A stretch of 43,778 bases of DNA, from the NCBI GenBank assembly GCA_002507425.1, contig DAZU01000114.1, forward strand, positions 701 through 44,478, given 5' to 3'. The notes beneath the pieces are model-generated. The model had not been told where the DNA came from and made no database searches. It saw only the letters and a program-made list of their open reading frames with translations. Positions 6,123 through 42,688 of the stretch are shown here, piece after piece. The stretch is from Euryarchaeota archaeon UBA53. Lineage in GTDB: Archaea > Thermoplasmatota > Poseidoniia > Poseidoniales > Poseidoniaceae. How positions within the stretch are numbered: the first letter of the stretch is position 1; every line of letters starts with the position of its first letter. Position numbers and translations under genes: made by a program.

Positions 6123-6399
6123 TAACTAGGTTCCTCTGTGAAGGTGCACTTGTATTCCGATGTCTTTGTAGCCGCGAACAGTGAGTAATGGGTTAGGAAT
6201 TGTAGTGTCAATACCTTCCATATGTGAGCAAATGTGAATCGGAAATACTCGCGTCGCAAAGATATGTGGTGAATAGTTTGTTTTTCCTTCTACATGTATC
6301 TACCAACGCTAATTGGATTATGAGAAAATCGCATGCGAGGTAGGAAAAATACACGAATATAGGACAATCTTGAATATACGTCAGTATCGCCTTTTGTAC

Positions 6400-7872
6400 A
6401 TGTCGGACGTAATAGCAATCCTAGACAAGATGCGCGCCTCCAGTGGCCATGCAGATACAGTAGGATTGTCAAATGACGTTATACTAGATTTTGTTTCTAG
6501 AGATAAGAAACTGATACAAGCTGTAGAGGAAGCTGAAACTAAGCAAAAAGAGTTTTCAAACGAATTGTTAATGATGAACGAATCAGACTTAGTCTCTCAT
6601 CTCCAAGAAGACTTTGTTAATTTCTATGCCCCTGCAACAATCAACCCATATGTAGCCTTAGCTGCAAGAGGGCCATGGATTGTAACATCACATGGTGCAG
6701 TTGTTCATGACAATGGAGGGTATGGTATGCTTGGAGGAGGGCACGGTCCTGAAGATATCATAGATGCTATGAGCCAAAACCACGTTATGGCCAACGTAAT
6801 GACTGCCTCAATTTCTCATGCAAGACTGGCCTCTGCACTAAAGAAAGAACTTGGTCACACTCGAGGAAGTTGTCCATTTTCCAAGTTCATATGCATGAAT
6901 TCTGGTTCAGAATCAATGACTGTTGCAATGAGAATTTGCGATGTAAACTCAAAGAAGATGACTGGACCGGGGGGTCGTTATGAAGGCAAACCAGTGAAAC
7001 TACTTGCAATCGAAAGAGCGTTTCATGGCAGGACTGACCGGCCTGCGCAGATTTCTCATTCGTGTATGGGCAAATATGACAAGGTGCTAAAGACATTTGC
7101 TGAAAGAGATAATCTAATTCTAGTTCCCTCAAACAATATCTCAGCTTTACAGGCAGCCTTTGCAGACGCCGAGCAAAGGGGTTACTTCATCGAATCGATG
7201 TCGATAGAACCTGTTCAAGGAGAAGGAAATCCTGGCCAATGTATTGACAGAGATTTCTATGATGAAGCACGTCGGCTTACAAATGAGCATGGCTCAATGT
7301 TAATCGTCGATTCTATTCAAGCGGGTATTAGAGGGCAAGGAACTCTCTCGTTAGTGGACTACGAAGGTTTCCAAGATGCAGAAGCTCCTGACTTAGAAAC
7401 CTGGTCTAAGGCTTTGAATGCCGGACAGTACCCATTGTCTGTTCTAGGTTTGAATGACAGAGCGGCGGAACTATACGTTGTGGGAATATATGGAAATACC
7501 ATGACTACAAACCCAAGAGCTCTAGAAACCGCCGTTGCTGTTTTGGAGAAGATCACACCCGACTTACGACAAAATATTCGTGAAAGAGGAGTTGAGTTTG
7601 TGGACAAATTGAAAGCTCTGGCTGAAGAAATTCCCGGAGTAATTACACGAGTTCAGGGAACTGGTTTGTTGCTTTCTGCTGAACTCGATCCTGAAAAAAT
7701 GAAGGTCGTTGGATTCGATGATGTCGAAGTTTGGTGCCGTAAGCATGGTCTAGGTGTAATCCATGGTGGAATTAATGCCCTAAGATACACTCCGCACTTC
7801 AACATCACAACTGAAGAAGTAGACCTTGTAATAGAAATTACAAGGCGAGCTATTACTTATTTTTCTCAGTAA
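6400..7872 (+). CDS. Class-III PLP-dependent aminotransferase (acetylornithine/omega-aminotransferase-like) with long N-terminal extension
   Basis: MNSGSESM, ERAFHGRT, IVDSIQAGIRGQG (variant of DEVQ-G-GRTG) and the candidate PLP lysine in ETWSKALNAG. The track start TTG 6313 is unlikely, so I use the first ATG at 6400. About 80 residues precede the usual fold. Confidence 0.8.
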   Translation: MSDVIAILDKMRASSGHADTVGLSNDVILDFVSRDKKLIQAVEEAETKQKEFSNELLMMNESDLVSHLQEDFVNFYAPATINPYVALAARGPWIVTSHGAVVHDNGGYGMLGGGHGPEDIIDAMSQNHVMANVMTASISHARLASALKKELGHTRGSCPFSKFICMNSGSESMTVAMRICDVNSKKMTGPGGRYEGKPVKLLAIERAFHGRTDRPAQISHSCMGKYDKVLKTFAERDNLILVPSNNISALQAAFADAEQRGYFIESMSIEPVQGEGNPGQCIDRDFYDEARRLTNEHGSMLIVDSIQAGIRGQGTLSLVDYEGFQDAEAPDLETWSKALNAGQYPLSVLGLNDRAAELYVVGIYGNTMTTNPRALETAVAVLEKITPDLRQNIRERGVEFVDKLKALAEEIPGVITRVQGTGLLLSAELDPEKMKVVGFDDVEVWCRKHGLGVIHGGINALRYTPHFNITTEEVDLVIEITRRAITYFSQ

Positions 7873-10973: not shown

Positions 10974-12269
10974 TTAGCCCTGTATGTAGCTGAACAAAAT
11001 AGGGACGACGATTGTGGCATCAGACTCAATGATGTGCATCGGAGTGCTTGGGGCTAATTTACCCCAAGTAATCTTCTCACTAGGAGAAGCTCCCGAGTAT
11101 CCACCATATGACATAGTAGATTCTGAAATTTGGGCAAACCATGCCCACATCGGAGCATCATGCTGTAAATCCTGACGTAGCATCGGGACCACACAAATAG
11201 GGAAATCACCAGCAATACCTCCACCGATTTGTAAGAATCCTATGGGACTATCTAAATTCTTATACCAATTTGCTAAATGAATCATGTAGTCTATACCTGT
11301 CTTAATTGCGGATCTTTCTACGTTACCGTTTATGCAATGTGCTGCAAATATATTTCCTAATGTCGAGTCCTCCCATCCGGGGACGTATATTGGAATACCT
11401 GCATCTTTTGCTGCGATTAACCAAGAATCTGTTCGAGGTATGTCCGCATCAAGATGATCTAGTATTGCCATTAGATGTTCGTGAGGAAAAGCAGGTTTGC
11501 TATTCCATTCATCAAGTATCTTGTCTTCAATATGGCGAATTGCTTCTTTTTCAGGAATACAAGTATCTGTTACCCTATTGAACCCTTTTCTGTGCAACTC
11601 CGCTTCATCCTCTAGAGTTAAACTACGCCATGTCTGGATTTTCTTATATTTCGAATGGGCTACAAGATTGAAGACGTCCTCTTCTAAATTTGCACCCGTG
11701 CAAGTAATAGCATGAACTTTTCCAGATCGGATAAGTGGTGCGAGTGAGCGCCCGATTTCTGCTGTACTCATTGCTCCAGCTAGTGTCAACATCAATTTAC
11801 CACCTGATTTTAGAAACTCATCTAAAGATTCTGCGCAGCTACGAAGCGCACCAGCATTAAAATGTTGAAAATGCCTTTTTACAAATTCTCGCATACCCTC
11901 CGTGTCTGACTCTGATACGAATCGTCCAACTTTATTACGGCGATTTATTTTCATGATTGGATACTTTTCTCGAAGGCCTTCTTCAATTACCTCGATTATT
12001 GATTCTGGATCTGTGTCTCCACAGGAGAATGCATCTATTGCTAACATCCCCGACTCTGAATAACAATGAGCAGTGACATGGCTTTCGTCGAGCAGAATCA
12101 CTGATGCAAAACCTGGAGGTGATTGTGTTCCATCAAATTCCTCAATATGTGAATGTACCCTGCGAGCTCCCGACTTATCTACTGCTGCCTCCATCAAGGA
12201 AAGTATCCAGGAACCATCAACTCCAACAACACCAGTACAATCTAACATGACATGAGCACCCTGCGTCAA
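10974..12269 (-). CDS. Fusion protein: SpeH-like pyruvoyl-dependent decarboxylase domain (aa 1-~115) plus deoxyhypusine synthase (aa ~125-431)
   Basis: The N-domain carries QGAHVMLDC, VILLDESHVTAHCY (Glu62/Ser63 self-cleavage context) and AIDAFSCGDTDP, as in small AdoMetDC/SpeH proenzymes. The C-domain carries LAGAMSTAEIG, ITCTGANLEEDV and the catalytic-lysine motif EKITWGK of DHS. It is a single uninterrupted frame. The start is TTG 12269 (keeps the conserved G-x-H) or ATG 12248. Confidence 0.85.
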   Translation of the reverse strand: MTQGAHVMLDCTGVVGVDGSWILSLMEAAVDKSGARRVHSHIEEFDGTQSPPGFASVILLDESHVTAHCYSESGMLAIDAFSCGDTDPESIIEVIEEGLREKYPIMKINRRNKVGRFVSESDTEGMREFVKRHFQHFNAGALRSCAESLDEFLKSGGKLMLTLAGAMSTAEIGRSLAPLIRSGKVHAITCTGANLEEDVFNLVAHSKYKKIQTWRSLTLEDEAELHRKGFNRVTDTCIPEKEAIRHIEDKILDEWNSKPAFPHEHLMAILDHLDADIPRTDSWLIAAKDAGIPIYVPGWEDSTLGNIFAAHCINGNVERSAIKTGIDYMIHLANWYKNLDSPIGFLQIGGGIAGDFPICVVPMLRQDLQHDAPMWAWFAQISESTMSYGGYSGASPSEKITWGKLAPSTPMHIIESDATIVVPILFSYIQG

Positions 12270-12273
12270 ATTT

Positions 12274-13164
12274 TCACCTACCTTTTGCTATGTGGGCTGC
12301 AACTACCTTTGTTGCAATCATTGCAGCCGTAAATTGTGTAAGTGGACTTCCTGCTTGTGGCACGATTTCATTGATATCTGCGCTAATAACGTTGCAATTA
12401 GCAAAAGCATGTTCAATTGTTTCAATTACATGCCAATAAGACAATCCACCAGGAACTGGGGTTCCAGTTGCTGGAACCAGAGAGCCATCTAGTCCGTCAA
12501 TGTCAATTGTTAAGTGAATAGGGCCTTCTATATTCTCAATCGAGGATAACCATTCTGACCAAACATCACTACCCTTGATTGGATGGAATATATCCTTTGC
12601 AAAAGTAGAATGAATTCTTTTATCCGTTTTCATAGTCTGCAATTCGCCAAAGCTGTATGCCCTAATTCCGACTTGGTGAACCCCTAATGCACCGGCATCT
12701 AATGCACGTGAAATGGCGCATGCATGAGAATATGGATCACCATCTAGTTCTTGCCTTAAGTCAGCGTGTGCATCTATTTGGATGAGTGTTACTTTATGCG
12801 GACATCCTCGCAATATTGCTGGTAGCATCCCATGTTCCCCTCCCAAGAAAATTGGGAATGCTCCGCTATCATATTGGCTTTTGGAATATTTTGATATTCC
12901 ATCAAGTTGTTCATTGAGCGTTGCTCCTTTTCCATCCCATGCCTCAACAGTTCGAATTATCTTTCCTGCCGGTAATTCTTCATCTAAGAGGTCATCATAT
13001 AATTCAACTTGAAGAGATGCCGCAATACACTCCTGTGGACCATTGACTGTTCCTTGGCCGTAAGATGTTGTAAGCTCATAGGGGACTTGAGCGATAACGA
13101 TATCTGGGTCTCCTTTCACATCTGGGAGGCCAAGGAAATTTGGCCCCGGAGTAACCTCACCCAT
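12274..13164 (-). CDS. speB: Agmatinase-family ureohydrolase (arginase fold)
   Basis: GGEHGM, IQIDAHADLR and LTIDIDGLD are Mn-binding motifs of the arginase/agmatinase family. The stop is 4 nt from the TTG start of the downstream DHS fusion. The track start is TTG 13209 and the first ATG is 13164. Confidence 0.85.
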   Translation of the reverse strand: MGEVTPGPNFLGLPDVKGDPDIVIAQVPYELTTSYGQGTVNGPQECIAASLQVELYDDLLDEELPAGKIIRTVEAWDGKGATLNEQLDGISKYSKSQYDSGAFPIFLGGEHGMLPAILRGCPHKVTLIQIDAHADLRQELDGDPYSHACAISRALDAGALGVHQVGIRAYSFGELQTMKTDKRIHSTFAKDIFHPIKGSDVWSEWLSSIENIEGPIHLTIDIDGLDGSLVPATGTPVPGGLSYWHVIETIEHAFANCNVISADINEIVPQAGSPLTQFTAAMIATKVVAAHIAKGR

Positions 13165-13305
13165 GTTACAATCGGGATTATTTCTACCTTTGAAGTGCTC
13201 GATTGGCAAGTTATGACCGTTGGGTTAATATGGGACGGTGTCTAATATAGATAATACTCATCGGGTAGAATGTCGAGGGACACTCTTTCGAGACGAGGTG
13301 ATTGC

Positions 13306-13728
13306 ATGGGAATGACAATGGCTGAATTAACAGAAGCAATTAGACAGCATATCGATATGGAAATGGACCCTGAAGTAGCTTGTGGAATGGCTGAGCACGC
13401 ATTAGGGTTCTTCGGCTTTTATGACAGAATAATCGATAACGCACTGGAACCAACTGACCGTAACCTGTTTTACATGTTTCAAGATTATGACTTATTGACT
13501 ACCGAGTCAGAAGAAACGACATTATGGGATGGCAGAGAGTGGAGAATTCACTACTGGAGATTCAAACCTGAGTTAAGAGAACGCGTTGAAGCCTACATGA
13601 ACCGAGAAGTCGAGGTCGTCGAGATTGATCCTTTCGGTGATGTATACGGTGACGGAGGAAGTATTTGGATGAGAGAGGGCGATAAGCCTGTTAATCCAAA
13701 CGCATTTACATCCGACCATTGGGGATGA
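13306..13728 (+). CDS. Hypothetical protein, no family recognised
   Basis: A GAGGTGA Shine-Dalgarno-like element precedes the ATG cluster at 13306/13312/13318. The ORF is compositionally like its neighbours. It is divergent from the agmatinase/DHS operon. The track start is 13270. Confidence 0.5.
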   Translation: MGMTMAELTEAIRQHIDMEMDPEVACGMAEHALGFFGFYDRIIDNALEPTDRNLFYMFQDYDLLTTESEETTLWDGREWRIHYWRFKPELRERVEAYMNREVEVVEIDPFGDVYGDGGSIWMREGDKPVNPNAFTSDHWG

Positions 13729-13768: not shown

Positions 13769-16717
13769 ATGTTCATGAAAGCCAGAGTTACTATACTGGT
13801 TCTACTGTTTCTGGCCTCCACAATTCCGCTATCCAGCGCAAACGAGACCGACAACGTCACAATTACAACTGACTGGACTAATGACCATGCCTACATCATT
13901 TCTGGTAACGTCGACATATCAGAAATATCAGCGACTCACATTCATTCAGGCGAGCCTCTTGATGTGGGTTTAATTTACGACACTACCGAGGAGAACCTGA
14001 AAATTATTCTCAATACAACAATAGCATACGGAGATGAAATTACAATATCTGCCGGAGAGGTTTCCAGAAGTCTGACTGTTGGGTTTTGGGGGCAACCGAT
14101 AGACGACCATGAGGTGACACTAAACTCTCAATGGACTATGGACCAGCAGTGGGAAAACGAGAACGGCAGCCAAAAGTATATTCTGGCTTTCAACGGACAA
14201 GGGTGGCAGCAAAGAATTGGAAGTTCTCTTGAATCATGGGAGATGGGTAATGGAACTTTACTGCTACTTTCAAGCACAGGTGAAGGAATAACCTCGATGG
14301 ATATCAATCTAACCTCTGTCTGGAAAAATGAAACCTCTTTGGATGGCATAATGACTGGGCAGGTTTTCGATGCTAGGGGAAGTGGAATTATTCAACTTGA
14401 CACGAATAACGAAGATGGAGATATCAAAATTCAAGGCGAAATTAGTGATGCTTGGATTAACCGAAGCATGATTGGAGACATTATCGACGAACGTTTCAGA
14501 CTAGAAGCTAACGGCTCTATTTCACTCTCTGCTGAAGATGAAGATAGTTTGATTGACTTAGATGGTGAAGTTGCGGTTTTGCTTATCGAAACCTGGGATT
14601 CTAACGGCACAAGAAAGCTATCACACACTCAATTTGAGGCAACTGCAGACATGACATTACAAGACAATGAGTCTCGAATGGACTTATCATTAGATACCTT
14701 CGAATCGATTGAAAGGTGGGAGGATGGAGTTAGAACTGACCAGTTTAACAAAATGACTGGCCATGGTTCATTTGGATTGTCTGATTCAGATGAAAATACA
14801 AGTGTCCAGATCAACGGAACCGTACATGACTTCCACACTGAATCAGAAGATGGATTAGTTATTGTTGATAACTTGCACGTCGATGGCAGAATAACTGGAG
14901 ATGCACAAGGCACGTTTGGAGTAGTTAGAGGGATTGAACAGGAAGCTAGGCAAGCAAACAAGACAGGGGTTATGTATGACGTAGTGATTGTTCACCAAGA
15001 GGAATGGTTCAACATTACTGGGATATCTGCGCTTCCAAATTCCAATCTAGGAGCTGGTGCACATCATAATGAGTCTTGGTCTTATGATGCAAAACAAACT
15101 CATTGGGAGAACCGAACGATTCGAACAGTTTGGGAACAGACAGGTCCTGATCCAAGTAGTGGCGACATAATTTACGAAAACTCCCCGATACAATCACAAC
15201 CAGAACCCCCAACAGTTGAAAATGCAATCGGAGATGTTACTGTTAGCAGAGAGACTGGGTTTTCTCCTGTTAGCTCAGTACCTGGAGATGTTTTTACATT
15301 AAATCAGCAGGATGGAATGGAACTGACTGTAACCACAGGGGGTTACATGACAGTACAAATCGATGGGCATCTTGTGGATACTGTTTCTTGGACAGGAAAC
15401 TATTCCGGAGGAGTATTTGGAAATGCATCTGGTAACCTGATCATTGATGGGCCGTTATCTGGATTAAACGTAGAGATAAATCGTGATTTCCAAATAGAAT
15501 TCGGAGATGAAGGAGAACTCGTATTCCTAAGCGAGAATCAATCTGTAAACAGAGTCTTGTCTCCTTCCATTATTTCTGTATATGACAATAGTGAACCCGT
15601 TATTGAGTCTATCTCTCTTGCCCAGGGTGTAGTTACAGGAGAAGGAGGCGCTCCTGGGTATCTAGAGGTCAAAGTCTCGGACATTGATTATAATGTTGAA
15701 AGAGTAATTGTAGATGCGAGTTCAATAGGAATTAACCAGACCATTGCACTAAATGATAGAGGATTAAATGGCGACCTTGTGATTGGAGACGATGTTTGGA
15801 CTACTGAAATACACGTTATGGGGATAGAATTTGGAGAGTTGCCATTAAACATTACAGCAATAGATGCATTTGATGAATCAAGCAATCGATCTGCGAATAT
15901 TACAGTCCTAAACCAAGCTCCTAGATTGACATATTTTGAAGCTGTTCCAACAATTCTTTCCAGAGGAGAAGTTATGATAGTAAATGCAGAAGTCATAGAC
16001 GGCCATGGCGTGAACTCTGTATCCGTGGATTTCAGAGACTTTGGAGGGAACATGACCGATTTGAACAGGGTTGGAGACATCTGGATAGGACAGGTTGAGA
16101 TTCCAAACGGAATGAGTCCTGGAAAGCACATTTTCAAAATGCGAATGGTAGATAACGAAGGATCTGCGATTACTGTGGAAAAGGTCAGCAGTTCTGGACA
16201 ACATCACCTACCATTGAGCAGTGACCAAGAACTAGAAGTTACGGTAATGAATGAGGCGCCAATCATAAATGTAGGTGAAACTAGGATAATTGAGGTTGGC
16301 GATGATCAGGTAGAATACACTCTTACAGTAGAAGTATTAGATCCAGATGGCCTCTTTTGGGTTAAGACCAATTTAGACTCTCTAGCGCCCCCTGGAGAGT
16401 CAAATTCATGGCTGTCAATGTCATCAAATGGAAATGGAACTTATTCTATACAGCTTACTGTAAAGACCTACATCGCTTTAGGAACATATGAAGTTAGAAT
16501 TAAAGCAATGGATTCATATGGAACTCAAACTGGAGAGGAATCATTGTCCATCACACTGAAATCTCCTAGCAATGATAATGTTGACGTAAGTGAGTCTGGG
16601 ATGGTGACCATCATTGCCGGAATCGGCTTGGGACTATTATTAATCGTTGGAGGCATTTTGTATGTAATGAGAGGTTCTGACGAGGAAGGTGGCCTTGGCG
16701 GCTTTGGTAACATTTGA
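13769..16717 (+). CDS. Large secreted surface (glyco)protein with C-terminal TM anchor and three tandem Ig-like modules
   Basis: Signal-like N-terminus MFMKARVTILVLLFLASTIPLSSANE. More than 25 N-x-S/T sequons. Three ~100-aa modules lie near the C-terminus (VKVSDIDYNVERVIVDASS / NAEVIDGHGVNSVSVDF / LTVEVLDPDGLFWV). TM helix VTIIAGIGLGLLLIVGGILYV, then a short tail. Confidence 0.8.
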   Translation: MFMKARVTILVLLFLASTIPLSSANETDNVTITTDWTNDHAYIISGNVDISEISATHIHSGEPLDVGLIYDTTEENLKIILNTTIAYGDEITISAGEVSRSLTVGFWGQPIDDHEVTLNSQWTMDQQWENENGSQKYILAFNGQGWQQRIGSSLESWEMGNGTLLLLSSTGEGITSMDINLTSVWKNETSLDGIMTGQVFDARGSGIIQLDTNNEDGDIKIQGEISDAWINRSMIGDIIDERFRLEANGSISLSAEDEDSLIDLDGEVAVLLIETWDSNGTRKLSHTQFEATADMTLQDNESRMDLSLDTFESIERWEDGVRTDQFNKMTGHGSFGLSDSDENTSVQINGTVHDFHTESEDGLVIVDNLHVDGRITGDAQGTFGVVRGIEQEARQANKTGVMYDVVIVHQEEWFNITGISALPNSNLGAGAHHNESWSYDAKQTHWENRTIRTVWEQTGPDPSSGDIIYENSPIQSQPEPPTVENAIGDVTVSRETGFSPVSSVPGDVFTLNQQDGMELTVTTGGYMTVQIDGHLVDTVSWTGNYSGGVFGNASGNLIIDGPLSGLNVEINRDFQIEFGDEGELVFLSENQSVNRVLSPSIISVYDNSEPVIESISLAQGVVTGEGGAPGYLEVKVSDIDYNVERVIVDASSIGINQTIALNDRGLNGDLVIGDDVWTTEIHVMGIEFGELPLNITAIDAFDESSNRSANITVLNQAPRLTYFEAVPTILSRGEVMIVNAEVIDGHGVNSVSVDFRDFGGNMTDLNRVGDIWIGQVEIPNGMSPGKHIFKMRMVDNEGSAITVEKVSSSGQHHLPLSSDQELEVTVMNEAPIINVGETRIIEVGDDQVEYTLTVEVLDPDGLFWVKTNLDSLAPPGESNSWLSMSSNGNGTYSIQLTVKTYIALGTYEVRIKAMDSYGTQTGEESLSITLKSPSNDNVDVSESGMVTIIAGIGLGLLLIVGGILYVMRGSDEEGGLGGFGNI

Positions 16718-36724: not shown

Positions 36725-39700
36725 TCATTCTTCCTCATCATATTCATGATACTGATTCCGTCTGATATAGGCGATTATGAGAATAAGTGCTGAGACGAAA
36801 ACTGATAATACGGCGAGGGATAAGATGGTGCTTTGAGATGCAGCAGAGTCGTCAGATCGTTGTTTAATGTTAGATATTGGAATAATCACATTTTCATCAC
36901 CGTCGATTTGTATAAAGAGTCCCAAATCTCCGGTTTTCCAAGCTTCTATCTCAAATTTATGGACACTACTAGCGCCGGATTTCAATGAAATATTTACTGT
37001 TTCAAAACTTCTATTATTCTCTCCAAACAATGTCAGATTTGACATTCCATCCATGACTCCAATGTTGGTAACAGTGCACTGGATAGTGATTATATCTCCT
37101 ATTTCTGGACGATAAGGATTGGCAACTATCTCAGCAATTTCTGGCTCATATGCGATCCACCTTACAACGGTTTCAAACGGATTTGCCTGATTAGTACCAA
37201 CACCAACAGCCTCCCTTCCTGCGGCGTCTGTTGCTGTAAACCAGATAATAATTGAATCTCCTTTTTGTAAATTCAAAGATGTGTTCATATCTACATTTCC
37301 AGAGTATAAGCTTGAAGAATCACTTTGAAATTTCACAGGAATCGTATCGGTCCCTTCCGATCCATCTATTATACGTCCATTGTTTACAAATTTCCAATTT
37401 ATAGCCACAGAGGATAATGAAAAACCGGCGTCATCATGCAGTGTTACTTCAACGGGAACATTTTCCAATCCGTCCGAATCTATGCTCACTAAGTTCCCCG
37501 GTGCAAGAATAAGGGTTGGAGGAGCGTTGTCGATGAGTATATTCATTTCGTCCCCAGTTCTATTATGACTTGAAACGCCGTCAATTTCTGCTAGTAATTT
37601 TATCTGTGTTCCATAAAACGCTGAATCAATAACGAATCGATTAGTTGATTTACCATTTGCATTGAAATTCCCAACCATAGATGAAGTATCATTATTTCCA
37701 ATTAGTTCAATGGTATATGATGCACTAAACGGTAAATTTTCAGCCGGTATGTTCAAGCCCCTATGAAACGCACAAACCTCGATATCCACAGCATCCTGTG
37801 CATGGATGTATAGTATGTCGTCCACAAACTCTCCAAGAGGGGCGATTTTGTCTATTGCATCTAATATCTTAAGATCTAATCCCTGATAAAGTTGCCAAGA
37901 AAAAAGGCTGATTGAAGAAAATCCTTCCAACGGTGCATTCTCATCCCAAAAATTCAGAGATGGGGTTTTCATTCCTTCATCTATGTCATCGATTAAGTCC
38001 CACCTCAATTCAAATAAAATTTTTACATCCCAAGTATTTACCTGCCACCTCTTTGAGAGTTCAACTCTTGGGGATCTAATGAAACATCCAGAATCATATG
38101 ATATCTCTCCATTCCATGGGGTCCACTCAATATCACAATAACCATGATTTTTTGACAGATCAAGACTCACACGATCTATTGAATCAATACCGTTTTGGTC
38201 TGACAATGTAAAATTAAATTCATGGGTATTTCCTGACAGCAAAAATCCGTTGACCAGATTTAATCCAATAGAGTCTCCGTTCACAATTGTAGAATACCTA
38301 GGCTGAACATATACAGTTGCATAGGGATTTGTTGAATTACCGCCTTCTAATAATTGGTTTCCAGCAAGATCTTTGCCTTCTACATAGATATCTAAATACC
38401 CATCTTGTTGGTTTGGAAGAGGAATACTTGATTCATCGATAAGGGGTATGTCAATGACGACATCGGTTGAGTCGATTGGAATAAGAAAATCAATGGATTC
38501 CCACCCTCGGCCGCTTCGGTTGTACCACAATTGCATTGTAGCTGGTAGACCATTATCATCCTGTAAATGGAGTATTAGCGGTATATCTTGACCAGGATGC
38601 CAAACATGTCCATCAGCAGGCTGATTTCCACCAGGGGCTGCAATTTGTAATGATACAACCCTTGAGTTATTATCGTCAAAGATAAAACTCGCTCGTTGGA
38701 ATTGCGATGTTGCGTCACTCGCAGTATTTTGATTGTTATTACCAATATTAATCAACTTAGGAACTATGTAAACAAGTTCTCCACTGTCAAACACATACTC
38801 GGGAATTTCAATAGTCAAGTTGAATTTCCCATACCGATCTATGTTTGCGGAAAAGTTGGACAAAATATTTCCTTCAGATTGTAAAGATATTATGACATCG
38901 ACTTCGTTGGGCATAGGGTTATCGTTGTTTACCCCTGAATATCGTACCTCTCCCTGAATAACAACCTCGCTTGATGGTTTTACATTCAAAGGCCACAAAG
39001 GCTCACTTATGTCATGAAGAGGCCTATCTTGCGACCATGCTCTTAGAGAGATAACTTCGAGATCGTTCGTAGATGCGGCATATTGAGCATTCCCTGTAAT
39101 GCCTACTGCTGGACCAAGATACAGCCCCTCAGCATTAATTGCATATACCAACCAGTAAATTCTCGGATTGTCGTCTAACATCCAATTTGATTTTAAAGAC
39201 CAAGTTGCATTCATCCCATCCCAACTAGAGTTTTGCACATCTAGAGTAATTACACCCGCTCCTGAATTTTGGATAAAGCGTCCACCACTGTCCAAATTAT
39301 CAATAGTAATTTCCGCAAACGAATCTTGTTGTGAGTTGCTAGATGATAATACCAATTTCACAGATGATAGAGAAGGTGTATCTTTTAATGATTCGTGATG
39401 AGACACTGCAACTTGAGTTCGGCCCGGGATAAAGGTCTTGTTGGGAAGGGTTATCCATCGGTCTTCAATCGTTTTTTCGTAATCGACTTGCCCATCAAAG
39501 AAAACTCCGCCTCTGTCTGCTGAAATTTTTACCGATAGAACAGACATTGTTTGTTGATTTGGAATAAATAAATCGCTGAGTGATGAATTAATATCTATCG
39601 AATGTTCAAATCCAGAGATATAATTCAGGGAATACAGATTGAAAAAACTAGAGTTTGAAGATGTGAAGCGAATTTCCAATTCCGTCATTTGATGAGAAAA

Positions 39701-42688
39701 ACCATTGGCATGAATCTCAACATGATACTCACTGTATGATGCTAAACTTGATCCATTAGTTTCGAAGTTTATTCCTCCACGATAGCAATTGTAAGATACT
39801 GCGCAATTCCAGGATTGATTAGATAGGTTGCGAGAAGGTAGTAAGACCGAAAATGATAGATTATGATGATATTCAACCTTGAATCCGAGATTGTTGGAAA
39901 GATTTTGAGTGATTCCATCTACTTTTAGCGAATGCAGGCGGTTGGTGAGGTGGAAGTCTCCTTGCCAAGCCCAATCAACTTGACCATCTTCACCCAAATC
40001 TATGGATGGATTCAAAGGAGCTAAAAGTGTCACTGGCTCAATTTTTATCCATTCAAATATCTCACCTGATTCGATTTGAATCTCGATTGATATGTCTTGG
40101 GCGGGGCCGAATGGATTAGCCATGTTCTCTCCACACTCTGCTTCGTCTATGATAAAGCTAGATCCGAGGCTGCTACTCGGACTTGTCGGACCCAAGAATG
40201 GAACTTTCCCTGGGATAGATTTGATACGGGCGGAAATATTGCCAACACAGTCGAGATTCACACTGTCGAATGTCCTCCAATGAGGCAATTCGATTGTAAA
40301 TGTATATTCTGAATTTTGAGACACTGGTTGGTCTTGATCAAATATCCAACTGGGCAGATTATCGTCAGCAGCGCGCAACAAATCATGATTGAAATATTCG
40401 GTAATTCCGTGATGGAGTATTTTTACTCTAGGAGTTAAAGTCTCGTTATTTGAGCTGAAATAAAGTCTAAATCTCAACTCAGGATACTCCCATGCAGCGA
40501 CTTTTAGATTAAATGGTAATGTTTTATTTTGGTGTCCTTCGATGATATTTCCCGATGCGTCCAAAACATCAACTGTGAGATTAGTTCCATGGGGTTGTTC
40601 ATACAGGGATGTTAATCTAGCCCAGCCCGAATTACCGGCTGTTATTGGAGGACTGGTCCAAACGCCTTGCGACCTAAATCTGTCAATAACAATACCTGCA
40701 TCGTCAATGTACCACCCATCTTCCTCAACATATGTATCGGAGAAGAATGAAAATCGAATTCTTACATCATTGCCAGCAAGATGGGATATGTCACCGCTTA
40801 TCCTTGAAAAAGTGTGATTTAAGTTTGAATTACCGCAACCATTAGCAACGGTTGAACCGTCAAAAATTCCCATTCCATGGAATGGCGAATTCGGATTTAC
40901 TTGGGAAACTATCTCATAGAAACCTGTTATGTTTTGGCCAAAAGGTTGCCAGGTCAATCCATCATCTATTGAAGTAAAAATTGTTCCTCCATCCCAAGCA
41001 CTTTCTGTGCAAACCCAGTGGTTAAATGTTAATCTTGCAGTAGCATCAGATGGTATCTGATAGAGGGGTGAGACTAAGTGAGTATACACATTGTTTGTAT
41101 ATTGTCCTTCAAGGTTTATTCCCACACCGTTGTAACCACTCGGCCAAACCGAAGAATTTGGTCCGTATCCATCATCATTTTCGATTTCGCCTCTTTCCCA
41201 CTTTGATTCGCCTCGTACATGGTCAACTCGCCATCCTTCTGGCAAGCCTTGAATTTGATCGAATGTTTCTGATATTGCCCATGGTCCATTGTGACCACTC
41301 CAGTCTATGTAGGCCCAATCGTTGCTGCTTCCTGAGTTATACTGCAAATATTGGCTTGAGTTGTCTGTGAAATTTTGTAATAATCGAACCAGACTATTTT
41401 GTGTACCCATCGCTGACAAGACCTTGAGGTCATCAATCATTATGCCTTCCCAGCCATCAATACCACTACCTCCGTAATTTATTGACGAATCTGTTTGGAC
41501 TTGGAATTTCAAAAGGCTGCTAGGTGCATTAGGGTGTCCAACAATCCATGGAGGGAGCGGGTGGATTAGTTCTCTCCAACCATAGGATTGCTGTGTAAAT
41601 GTCGAACCTCCAGAGACTGTACTTTGGCCCGGAACACCAGGAAGAGGACTTATTACCGACCAAGTTGAGCCATTATCTTGAGAAATCATAACGTTTAGAT
41701 TGTCTGAATTTCCACCTTGGATATCCCAATTAGCCCAGTATGTAAGCTCTAATGGATTTGTTAATCCAGACAAGTCCACTGGTACCATAAGAGTCCCATT
41801 TGCATTACTCGAGTATTGTCCGGATGTATTACCATGAAACCATGCTCGAAGTGGTTCACCATCATTTGATAGGTTAAATGTATCAATAAACAAGCCTACA
41901 TCTGCGGATGAATTTTGTGAGGATTCAACATAGAACCTAAATCCAATCTCGTTAGCACTTTGTGAAATGTTGTCTAGTGAGTATTCCTGCCTTTGCCAAG
42001 TTTGACTGAATCCTGACCAATTATCAATAGAAACCCATGTTTGTCCATTATCTATGGAATATTCAAGGCCAAATTCGTCATCTGAATCAAAACTATTCCA
42101 TCTATCGAATGATAAAGAGAAATTTCTCACCACATCGGGAATTTCCCAAAACTGGGATCTCACGTATCCTGTTGTTCCAGGAGGTATCGTTCCATTACTA
42201 CCTGCTGCATAATCACCTGAGGTTGCGTTTTGCGGACCGTAATTCACAGAAGAAAGGTTAACTGGTATCCACAAGGAGTCACCCTGCGTGCTCCAAGAAC
42301 TAAACTGCGGAGTTATAGATTCAAAATCTGTCATCTCACCATATGTTGAAATCGGTGCTAAAGTAAGATCACCATTGGATGTCAAATATGATGTCCCATC
42401 TGAAATTCCTGAAGAAAATCCTCCCAAATCATATGCAGACCAGGATGAACCGTTATTTTGTGAAGGTATCCACTTTGGGGCTATACTGAACTGTGATCCA
42501 GTAATTGTTGAATTTGTAGGAATTTCAAACCCTTCATACGTGGAGTTAGAATGTGAAATACCTGCATCATCTGGAGAACTATCTGGGCCCTGCCATGTTG
42601 CAATGTCAGCCGCTGCCCATGGGGATAGGACCATCAAAACAGCAAGATAGATGGCTTGTCTGATCGGGTTCACCGAAGGTGAACTCAA
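36725..42688 (-). CDS. Giant (1987 aa) secreted surface protein with signal peptide, three Asp-box-containing beta-sandwich modules and C-terminal TM anchor
   Basis: N-terminus IRQAIYLAVLMVLSPWAAADIA. Asp-box (S-x-D-x-G-x-T-W) motifs SIDNGQTW, SQDNGSTW and SIDDGLTW, each followed by a (W)-x-IDD module end. Very many N-x-S/T sequons. C-terminal helix ILSLAVLSVFVSALILIIAYI then RRNQYHEYDEEE. The start codon is TTG 42688, with GTG 15 nt downstream also possible. Confidence 0.85.
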   Translation of the reverse strand: MSSPSVNPIRQAIYLAVLMVLSPWAAADIATWQGPDSSPDDAGISHSNSTYEGFEIPTNSTITGSQFSIAPKWIPSQNNGSSWSAYDLGGFSSGISDGTSYLTSNGDLTLAPISTYGEMTDFESITPQFSSWSTQGDSLWIPVNLSSVNYGPQNATSGDYAAGSNGTIPPGTTGYVRSQFWEIPDVVRNFSLSFDRWNSFDSDDEFGLEYSIDNGQTWVSIDNWSGFSQTWQRQEYSLDNISQSANEIGFRFYVESSQNSSADVGLFIDTFNLSNDGEPLRAWFHGNTSGQYSSNANGTLMVPVDLSGLTNPLELTYWANWDIQGGNSDNLNVMISQDNGSTWSVISPLPGVPGQSTVSGGSTFTQQSYGWRELIHPLPPWIVGHPNAPSSLLKFQVQTDSSINYGGSGIDGWEGIMIDDLKVLSAMGTQNSLVRLLQNFTDNSSQYLQYNSGSSNDWAYIDWSGHNGPWAISETFDQIQGLPEGWRVDHVRGESKWERGEIENDDGYGPNSSVWPSGYNGVGINLEGQYTNNVYTHLVSPLYQIPSDATARLTFNHWVCTESAWDGGTIFTSIDDGLTWQPFGQNITGFYEIVSQVNPNSPFHGMGIFDGSTVANGCGNSNLNHTFSRISGDISHLAGNDVRIRFSFFSDTYVEEDGWYIDDAGIVIDRFRSQGVWTSPPITAGNSGWARLTSLYEQPHGTNLTVDVLDASGNIIEGHQNKTLPFNLKVAAWEYPELRFRLYFSSNNETLTPRVKILHHGITEYFNHDLLRAADDNLPSWIFDQDQPVSQNSEYTFTIELPHWRTFDSVNLDCVGNISARIKSIPGKVPFLGPTSPSSSLGSSFIIDEAECGENMANPFGPAQDISIEIQIESGEIFEWIKIEPVTLLAPLNPSIDLGEDGQVDWAWQGDFHLTNRLHSLKVDGITQNLSNNLGFKVEYHHNLSFSVLLPSRNLSNQSWNCAVSYNCYRGGINFETNGSSLASYSEYHVEIHANGFSHQMTELEIRFTSSNSSFFNLYSLNYISGFEHSIDINSSLSDLFIPNQQTMSVLSVKISADRGGVFFDGQVDYEKTIEDRWITLPNKTFIPGRTQVAVSHHESLKDTPSLSSVKLVLSSSNSQQDSFAEITIDNLDSGGRFIQNSGAGVITLDVQNSSWDGMNATWSLKSNWMLDDNPRIYWLVYAINAEGLYLGPAVGITGNAQYAASTNDLEVISLRAWSQDRPLHDISEPLWPLNVKPSSEVVIQGEVRYSGVNNDNPMPNEVDVIISLQSEGNILSNFSANIDRYGKFNLTIEIPEYVFDSGELVYIVPKLINIGNNNQNTASDATSQFQRASFIFDDNNSRVVSLQIAAPGGNQPADGHVWHPGQDIPLILHLQDDNGLPATMQLWYNRSGRGWESIDFLIPIDSTDVVIDIPLIDESSIPLPNQQDGYLDIYVEGKDLAGNQLLEGGNSTNPYATVYVQPRYSTIVNGDSIGLNLVNGFLLSGNTHEFNFTLSDQNGIDSIDRVSLDLSKNHGYCDIEWTPWNGEISYDSGCFIRSPRVELSKRWQVNTWDVKILFELRWDLIDDIDEGMKTPSLNFWDENAPLEGFSSISLFSWQLYQGLDLKILDAIDKIAPLGEFVDDILYIHAQDAVDIEVCAFHRGLNIPAENLPFSASYTIELIGNNDTSSMVGNFNANGKSTNRFVIDSAFYGTQIKLLAEIDGVSSHNRTGDEMNILIDNAPPTLILAPGNLVSIDSDGLENVPVEVTLHDDAGFSLSSVAINWKFVNNGRIIDGSEGTDTIPVKFQSDSSSLYSGNVDMNTSLNLQKGDSIIIWFTATDAAGREAVGVGTNQANPFETVVRWIAYEPEIAEIVANPYRPEIGDIITIQCTVTNIGVMDGMSNLTLFGENNRSFETVNISLKSGASSVHKFEIEAWKTGDLGLFIQIDGDENVIIPISNIKQRSDDSAASQSTILSLAVLSVFVSALILIIAYIRRNQYHEYDEEE

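Follow-up and report, generated by a model that had tools for sequence, protein, structure and literature searches.

The closest described counterpart of the locus reported here is the speB–speDA–speY gene cluster of marine group II archaea, in which a speD homologue stands together with speB and with a homologue of deoxyhypusine synthase (DHS) designated 'speY' (Li, Liang, Phillips & Michael, J Biol Chem 2023; PMC10407285). The published hosts are the uncultured marine group II/III euryarchaeote KM3_15_H06 and Ca. Poseidonales archaeon isolate 70165. The same three gene families, in the same taxon and in the same gene order, are found in the stretch of DNA analysed here, which comprises 43,778 nucleotides of contig DAZU01000114.1 of Euryarchaeota archaeon UBA53 (positions 701–44,478; Poseidoniales) and is referred to, at its full length, as the window. 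However, SpeDA and the DHS homologue (DS) are encoded by separate genes in the published cluster, whereas in the window they are joined in one open reading frame (ORF). By analogy with assayed relatives, we consider it probable that the operon formed by a speB-like gene and this speDA–speY fusion makes homospermidine from arginine by the agmatine-dependent 'diagmatine' route.

The two purified speD homologues of the published cluster both decarboxylate L-arginine, with kcat/Km values of 64 and 180 M−1 s−1 and Km values of 2–3 mM, but ornithine and lysine are substrates of neither; they also failed to restore the synthesis of spermidine to an E. coli strain without speD, had no S-adenosylmethionine decarboxylase (AdoMetDC) activity and were named SpeDA (PMC10407285). 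The SpeDA of marine group II is placed in one clade with those of Solirubrobacter and Gimesia. The genomes had been chosen by Li et al. for the absence of speE and are reported to have no other arginine decarboxylase (ADC) (PMC10407285). In the bacterial SpeY/diagmatine pathway (Li et al., 2026, PMC13625781, and the Thermus thermophilus work cited there), a DHS-fold enzyme is likewise found beside an ADC and speB; in Caldilinea aerophila and Winogradskyella algicola, agmatine is converted to N1,N9-bis(guanidino)homospermidine (G44G) through the speY genes, and the SpeB proteins of these two bacteria hydrolyse G44G and not agmatine (PMC13625781). The window differs from this pathway in its archaeal host, in the SpeD fold of its predicted ADC and in the covalent fusion. 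In Crenarchaeota (Saccharolobus solfataricus), too, a pyruvoyl arginine decarboxylase has evolved from a paralogue of AdoMetDC, but it is of independent origin (phylogeny in PMC10407285), is unfused and is not linked to a DS gene. In the SpeD–SpeDC fusions of Omnitrophota and Desulfotignum (PMC10407285), a self-processing SpeD-fold pyruvoyl domain is likewise fused to the polyamine enzyme of a neighbouring step, and a processed chain likewise stays attached to the second catalytic domain; both halves of those proteins are SpeD homologues, however, whereas the partner in the window is an unrelated NAD-dependent DHS-fold enzyme.

The operon and the parts of the fusion protein are placed as follows in the window.

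10974..12269, minus strand: fusion ORF, SpeDA–SpeY-like, 431 aa plus stop, uninterrupted

11916..12269, minus strand: N-domain (aa 1–118), class 1b AdoMetDC-fold pyruvoyl proenzyme, predicted L-arginine decarboxylase (SpeDA)

12081..12086, minus strand: Glu62–Ser63 codons GAA AGC, predicted serinolysis site, with Ser63 giving rise to the pyruvoyl group

11865..11915, minus strand: interdomain linker (about aa 119–135), variable in length, of low predicted local distance difference test (pLDDT) score

10977..11864, minus strand: DS domain (aa 136–431), deoxyhypusine-synthase fold, SpeY-like subfamily, predicted NAD-dependent agmatine–agmatine coupling enzyme

11205..11207, minus strand: Asp355 codon, in GGGIAGDFP, at the His288 position of canonical DHS

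11058..11060, minus strand: Lys404 codon AAA, catalytic lysine of EKITWGK, equivalent to human Lys329

12274..13209, minus strand: opens the operon and encodes a speB-like ureohydrolase of 311 aa, with N1,N9-bis(guanidino)homospermidine ('diagmatine') as its predicted substrate

A preliminary description of this stretch had reported an in-frame fusion of a SpeD/SpeH-fold proenzyme to a DHS-fold enzyme, and this fusion is real. The motifs that it quoted (QGAHVMLDC, LLDESHVTAHCY, AIDAFSCGDTDP, ITCTGANLEEDV and EKITWGK) were all found in the ORF, and the profile searches that it had proposed for the two parts returned Pfam AdoMet_dc (PF02675) on residues 7–108, with 61 bits (cut-off 25, E 1.4e-16), and Pfam DS (PF01916) on residues 137–428, with 139 bits (cut-off 27, E 3e-40). 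The AlphaFold2 model of the fusion, with a mean pLDDT of 88.8 and a predicted template-modelling score of 0.76, is confident for both domains. A survey of a clustered protein collection (clusters at 90% identity; assemblies from ENA, JGI, NCBI, Tara and Logan) yielded the continuous two-domain ORF in 94 cluster representatives, at identities from 99% down to 52%, and the two-domain proteins returned by this search were 424–487 aa in length. In an alignment of 148 sequences, including these 94, Glu62, Ser63, His68 and Cys83 are kept in every fused representative and Lys404 in 93, the remaining one having an alignment gap at that position. Loss of the Ser63 processing site in orthologues, which the preliminary description had named as a sign of a non-catalytic domain, was thus found in none of the 94, and a degenerate N-domain is rejected. 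The segment between Arg116-Phe117 and His136-Phe137-Asn138-Ala139 differs in length by 0–34 residues among the fusions and has the lowest pLDDT of the model (68–75); in its variability and low model confidence, it behaves as an interdomain linker does.

Among these fused forms, DS-only entries of 272–345 aa are nested (P0080–P0082, P0096 and P0097), as would be seen if the fusion were an artefact or a decaying gene, with a stop or frameshift missed in assembly or with one domain inactive. However, proteins called at 431 and at 326 aa fall into one and the same 90% cluster, with nearly identical sequences, which suggests that the gene calls differ rather than the genes. An assembly artefact is ruled out for practical purposes by the 94 fused representatives from independent assemblies, and the conservation of the catalytic residues of both domains and the confident models of both likewise argue against decay, making this explanation scarcely credible.

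The N-domain aligns to the AdoMetDC of T. maritima (1tlu) with Ser63, His68 and Cys83 matched, and 2iii was also matched; the roles of these three residues are known from the T. maritima enzyme, as cited in PMC10407285. It is 50–77% identical to stand-alone Poseidoniales speD homologues, among them AIF20807.1 (with the source prefix 'KM3_', like the assayed clone KM3_15_H06), DAC25352, DAC25276, DAC60406 and DAC28102. Its putative orthology to the assayed SpeDA rests on taxon, on the operon and on identity to database neighbours of AIF02979 and DAC51064.

The preliminary description had placed this domain in a SpeH frame, in which decarboxylated AdoMet is supplied for spermidine synthesis, and had asked whether it acts on AdoMet or on arginine. 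One proline is conserved in all true AdoMetDC but not in SpeDA (PMC10407285), and on our own reading of the alignment this diagnostic residue would be the proline of HTWPE, no other proline lying between the serine of the processing site and the catalytic cysteine in the AdoMetDC of T. maritima and A. aeolicus. HTWPE reads HCYSE in the window, and Ser71 occupies the proline position in at least 90% of the fusions. TIGR03330, the sole NCBIfam model that matches the N-domain, gives 64 bits and lies under its cut-off of 75.65, and no Spermine_synth domain was found in the Pfam-scanned ORFs, which cover most of the 43.8-kb window. An AdoMetDC function of the N-domain is rejected in view of the missing proline, the sub-cut-off TIGR03330 score and the lack of AdoMetDC activity of the assayed orthologues, and the spermidine frame did not hold. 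Arginine rather than AdoMet is predicted as the substrate because unfused marine group II orthologues have been assayed as L-arginine decarboxylases and because the diagnostic proline is replaced by Ser71; the substrate question of the preliminary description is thereby answered in favour of arginine, as a prediction from these orthologues and from the proline rule.

Comparison of the DS domain with human, P. horikoshii and 8put DHS by Foldseek gave target-normalised template-modelling scores of 0.68–0.78. The domain has in common with canonical DHS (human DHPS, archaeal 8put and 7cmc, HVO_B0182) the fold, the NAD-site GGG, the catalytic lysine and E-x-x-x-W-G-K, and Lys404 in EKITWGK (E-x-x-S/T-W-G/N-K) is aligned to the catalytic lysine motif of the solved enzymes. 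However, it is only 16–21% identical to canonical DHS, carries insertions after the motif in which KHH has become GDF and is not linked to aIF5A. The best solved DHS reaches 42 bits against the domain, and all five NCBIfam DHS equivalogs missed it, with 58–103 bits against cut-offs of 304–434. The GGGxxKHH of canonical DHS corresponds to GGGIAGDF here; Lys-His-His is replaced by Gly-Asp-Phe, and Asp355 takes the place of human His288, the invariant proton acceptor/donor of DHS (PMC7226451). KHH is present in canonical 8put, in T. vaginalis 8qzw and in Haloferax HVO_B0182, the last of which clears NF003052 with 520 bits (cut-off 380). The NF002699-type SpeY from Trichormus carries K-N-F, and L012 clears NF002699 with 592 bits; the subfamily of the window, in contrast, is of the G-D-F type and falls outside both NF002699 and NF001980. 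In a motif census, G-D-[FY] was found in 173 of 175 aligned sequences, the exceptions being the two outgroups. The DS domain is thus not a canonical DHS, and its subfamily is a lineage separate from the Thermus/Nostoc-type SpeY.

Taken literally, the preliminary description implied an AdoMetDC that feeds spermidine synthesis and a canonical DHS domain that uses the spermidine on aIF5A. The Pfam names of both domains agree with this, as does the fact that the only NCBIfam model matching the N-domain is TIGR03330. However, that match is below the cut-off and the diagnostic proline is missing, the assayed marine group II orthologues are without AdoMetDC activity, no spermidine synthase was found in the scanned ORFs of the window and the genomes of Li et al. 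lack speE, and the DS domain has no counterpart of His288 and lies below every DHS equivalog cut-off. This combination makes the literal version very improbable.

The G-D-F subfamily extends well beyond the window. A scan of one genome per prokaryotic species with the motifs [CSV]TGANLEE[DS] and Q[IVL]GGGI[AS]GD gave at least 591 confirmed loci with both motifs, and the signatures TGANLEED and GGGIAGDF are common to the DS domain of the window and these loci. Among the best 80 of the at least 591 loci, most are bacterial, at 55–59% identity, and those of Poseidoniales are at 54–81%; these 80 include Acidobacteriota, Verrucomicrobiota, Gemmatimonadota, cultured Chryseobacterium and Chitinophaga, Rhodopirellula, Bdellovibrio, Caldilineaceae, Protochlamydia and delta- and gamma-proteobacteria. 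In two further scans, many more members were found, among them those in gut Bacteroidales/Alistipes, Solirubrobacteraceae, Planctomicrobium and metagenome-assembled genomes (MAGs) of the genus Caldilinea and of Caldilineaceae. A subfamily hidden Markov model, built locally from archaeal sequences together with their nearest relatives in the database, of which some are bacterial or of unknown origin, scored bacterial members at 464–510 bits, within the archaeal range; on the same model, the NF002699 SpeY reached 116 bits and the canonical Haloferax DHS 81 bits. The bacterial members show the same sub-cut-off pattern on NCBIfam as the window protein, and no curated NCBIfam model covers the subfamily. 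Bacteria possess EF-P and lack aIF5A. Because the subfamily is abundant in organisms without aIF5A, modification of this factor cannot, judged by distribution, be its general function.

As a separate observation on this distribution, the DS gene of a Ca. Methanomethylophilaceae contig (L167) is nested among those of gut Bacteroidales/Alistipes with a branch length of almost zero, and is likely to reflect mis-binning or a very recent transfer.

The bacterial members lie in clusters with an ADC and speB. In a Caldilineaceae locus (L049), PvlArgDC, an Arginase-family gene and DS follow one another on one strand; the same three genes share a locus in a member of Chloroflexia (L064), in which the strand of the Arginase gene is ambiguous. 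A Flavobacteriales locus (L036) has a 488-aa AR-fold decarboxylase without the helical bundle, followed by an Arginase-family gene and DS, and a Protochlamydia locus (L077) has a SpeA-type ADC followed by the same two genes. Two of these layouts match those described for C. aerophila and W. algicola in PMC13625781. Moreover, a fusion of the same two domains exists in a bacterium: a 'Pseudomonadota bacterium' MAG (L251, 8001–9362; P0289 = MEC8460675.1) encodes a 453-aa AdoMet_dc–DS protein that is 45% identical to the window protein. The neighbouring gene is of the arginase family and in divergent orientation, and genes for RND efflux and UvrA are carried elsewhere on this contig. This fusion is apparently a singleton in the collection. 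The preliminary description had also proposed that substrate supply for aIF5A modification is tethered to DHS here, which is not borne out in that form: the DS domain misses all DHS equivalogs, has an aspartate at the His288 position and groups with hundreds of bacterial proteins of the ADC–speB–speY cluster type.

In the pathway that we propose, the 431-aa proenzyme would cleave itself between Glu62 and Ser63 to give a β chain of about 6.6 kDa and a pyruvoyl-α chain, the latter joined through the flexible linker to the DS domain. The N-domain would then convert L-arginine to agmatine, as the assayed unfused orthologues do. By comparison with assayed bacterial SpeY, the DS domain would oxidise agmatine with NAD, carry the 4-guanidinobutyl group as an imine on Lys404 and pass it to a second agmatine to form G44G, from which the upstream ureohydrolase would release homospermidine and two urea. 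Several lines of evidence speak for homospermidine as the product: unfused relatives share the operon of the window and its neighbours, the purified speD homologues of the published cluster are arginine decarboxylases and the proline diagnostic of AdoMetDC is missing here, the DS signatures are shared with mostly bacterial loci, the bacterial subfamily members sit in ADC–speB clusters of the type that yields G44G (PMC13625781), the bacterial AdoMet_dc–DS fusion adjoins an arginase-family gene, and His288 of canonical DHS is replaced while the catalytic residues of all three enzymes are conserved.

It is plausible that the fusion is of benefit by fixing a 1:1 ratio of the two activities and by raising the local concentration of agmatine, as it would place a slow decarboxylase of millimolar Km beside an enzyme that uses two agmatines per turnover. 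Free agmatine is easily diverted, according to Li et al. (PMC13625781). Strict channelling is nevertheless unlikely, because archaea also require free agmatine for tRNA-Ile agmatidine (PMC5178350); if there is no other ADC in these genomes, as Li et al. report, the N-domain must supply this agmatine as well.

Several points weigh against this assignment. Both SpeY-type NCBIfam models missed the DS domain, with 123 bits for NF001980 (cut-off 450) and 89 bits for NF002699 (cut-off 500). The link to the assayed bacterial enzymes is one of genus or family, of cluster layout and of the descriptions given in the papers, and not one of sequence. In a tree made by neighbour joining only, the archaeal DS sequences separate from the bacterial ones as an adjacent clade, whose members could use another acceptor. 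For aIF5A, archaea depend on a DHS, a role that the fusion may itself fill in these genomes. Lastly, no polyamine measurements for these uncultured archaea were found in the literature, and a search for Poseidoniales with hypusine, polyamine or homospermidine returned nothing beyond PMC10407285.

These points lead to an alternative that we consider possible but less likely, namely agmatine-dependent deoxyhypusination of aIF5A, either alone or besides homospermidine synthesis. Here, the N-domain would provide agmatine, the DS domain would load the conserved lysine of aIF5A with the 4-guanidinobutyl group, and removal of urea by the speB-like enzyme would leave deoxyhypusine; bacterial SpeY would then have descended from an enzyme of this archaeal kind. 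A precedent is offered by Haloferax volcanii, in which aIF5A is deoxyhypusinated and spermidine is absent, an agmatinase-like gene that lies in a cluster with DHS and aIF5A is essential, and the DHS shows no activity on spermidine in vitro (Prunetti et al., 2016; PMC5178350). The model favoured by Prunetti et al., in which agmatine is the donor for transfer to aIF5A and the agmatinase-like enzyme does the trimming, requires exactly the three activities encoded in the window; they could not demonstrate it (PMC5178350). Modified aIF5A is thought to be necessary in archaea, the AdoMetDC/spermidine synthase route is apparently missing in these archaea (PMC10407285), and Li et al. (2026) themselves ask whether an agmatine-dependent DHS exists in archaea (PMC13625781). 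The separate archaeal DS clade would also fit, as would the retention of subfamily members by DPANN archaea despite their very small genomes. On the other side, the G-D-F subfamily is mostly bacterial and includes a bacterial fusion of the same two domains, the Haloferax DHS paralogue that was examined is of the KHH type, and the Haloferax reaction has never been demonstrated in vitro (PMC5178350). The linkage of aIF5A to agmatinase has been reported in about 62% of Euryarchaeota (PMC5178350), but no aIF5A gene was found near the operon in the window or at any of 251 loci, and a gene-neighbourhood link to aIF5A was rejected.

A more specific version of this alternative, in which Poseidoniales and perhaps DPANN archaea are without canonical DHS and their SpeY-type enzyme, fed by the fused ADC, is itself the aIF5A-modifying enzyme, is doubtful. 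If it is true, the enzyme would be the first agmatine-dependent DHS to be defined by sequence, the Haloferax model, so far unproven, would be borne out, and the archaeal ancestor of bacterial SpeY would be identified.

Returning to homospermidine synthesis as the favoured function, the pathway, the neofunctionalisation of SpeDA and the marine group II cluster have already been published, and it is the covalent SpeDA–DS fusion that appears to be undescribed. It is not mentioned in PMC10407285 or PMC13625781, where 'fused' and 'fusion' are used of different proteins or of a synthetic TBLASTN query, and it was not found in the further literature searched. The importance of the locus lies mainly in a correction of annotation, in a functional link and in a pointer to an unmodelled subfamily. 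Public records label these proteins 'deoxyhypusine synthase' (for example HIL65960.1, RAH14750.1 and MBT3772016.1), a label that would mislead the reconstruction of translation-factor modification and polyamine metabolism in the most abundant archaea of the surface ocean. The fusion acts as a natural 'Rosetta stone' that ties a SpeD-derived predicted ADC to a DHS-fold enzyme and supports an agmatine-dependent reading of the subfamily, and as a single polypeptide it is suited to testing the hand-over of agmatine between active sites. It also draws attention to a widespread DS subfamily that the curated models leave uncovered, and by naming a clade it makes concrete the 2026 question of an archaeal agmatine-dependent DHS.

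The origin of the fusion can be traced in its unfused relatives. The DS-only relatives P0102 and P0117, at about 60% identity, have the operon and neighbours seen in the window, and the unfused order comprises a divergent DUF6015 gene, an Arginase-family gene, AdoMet_dc (127–138 aa), DS (315–319 aa), M14 and M17 peptidases, HSP70 and Cpn60. The AdoMet_dc and DS genes abut or overlap by 1–8 nt in the unfused loci. In the Poseidoniales genome UWMA-0357 (L005; 6300–6440), the speDA and DS ORFs lie in the same frame with one TGA between them ('...GRFLN* GVMMRRFIDENLHHFNAG'), and this locus is an intermediate state, a single mutation separating its split genes from a fused one. The abutting or overlapping genes and this in-frame TGA indicate that the fusion arose when the stop codon that had parted two neighbouring genes was lost. 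Among the archaeal species representatives in the loci listed, eight are fused (L001–L004 and L013–L016) and ten are unfused. Fused and unfused forms are interleaved in the neighbour-joining tree, which hints at more than one fusion or fission event, the robustness of the tree being too low to count them.

Other domain combinations were also seen. Two proteins from metagenome contigs, P0288 (756 aa) and P0401 (538 aa, cut), contain AdoMet_dc, a methyltransferase of the NNMT/PNMT/TEMT type and a subfamily DS in one chain, which suggests a methylated polyamine product. P0366 (328 aa), which matches the N-domain, has two AdoMet_dc stretches and may be a SpeD–SpeD type fusion like those of PMC10407285.

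The start of the fusion is set by its junction with the upstream gene.

12270..12279, minus strand: speB/fusion junction, speB TGA inside AGGTGA, 4 nt, then TTG

The speB stop codon TGA at 12274–12276 is separated by 4 nt from the TTG start codon of the fusion at 12267–12269, as had been noted in the preliminary description, and the tight coupling of the upstream agmatinase-family gene that it proposed stands. Many gene callers place the start of the fusion at Met8, which gives a protein of 424 aa. TTG is the better choice because Gly4 and His6 are conserved and aligned to solved AdoMetDC, because the homologous start codon is ATG in L013 and L014, and because the (A/G)GGTGA motif that holds the speB stop 4–6 nt before the next start is conserved, being found in the window and in six relatives (L001–L004, L014 and L015). 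The start codon that follows speB is TTG in the window and in L015. We infer from this arrangement that speB and the fusion are translationally coupled.

The speB product matches Pfam Arginase (PF00491) with 162 bits, and its score of 158 bits on the agmatinase model TIGR01230 is below the cut-off of 174.3, as might fit a relative with a shifted substrate. The binuclear-metal ligands His126, Asp146, His148, Asp150, Asp236, Asp238 and Glu281 are invariant in the speB alignment, and the best solved relative is 3pzl, an agmatine ureohydrolase. A speB gene, a speD homologue and DS occur together in the window, at L001–L010 and at the archaeal loci L013–L021, L025, L039, L067 and L078, except that no speB was detected at L018 and L078, the two exceptions among the archaeal loci examined. 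In L005, speB lies downstream on the opposite strand.

On the other side of speB, the operon has a divergent neighbour.

13270..13728, plus strand: DUF6015 gene (PF19479, 334 bits)

A DUF6015 gene takes the same divergent position in the unfused Poseidoniales loci L006 (6135–6533), L009 (5841–6275) and L010 (55–489); it might be a regulator or partner of the operon, of which its membership is uncertain.

Elsewhere in the window, a 519-aa class-III aminotransferase is encoded at 6313..7872 on the plus strand, between HSP70 and the M17 peptidase; in the syntenic L006, just a 180-aa ORF on the other strand is found at this place. A 982-aa ORF at 13769..16717 on the plus strand has no Pfam match above threshold, and a 1987-aa ORF extends over 36725..42688 on the minus strand; both probably encode surface or secreted proteins. 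Large ORFs of about 1030–1040 aa with no Pfam match are found near the operon in L006 and L009.

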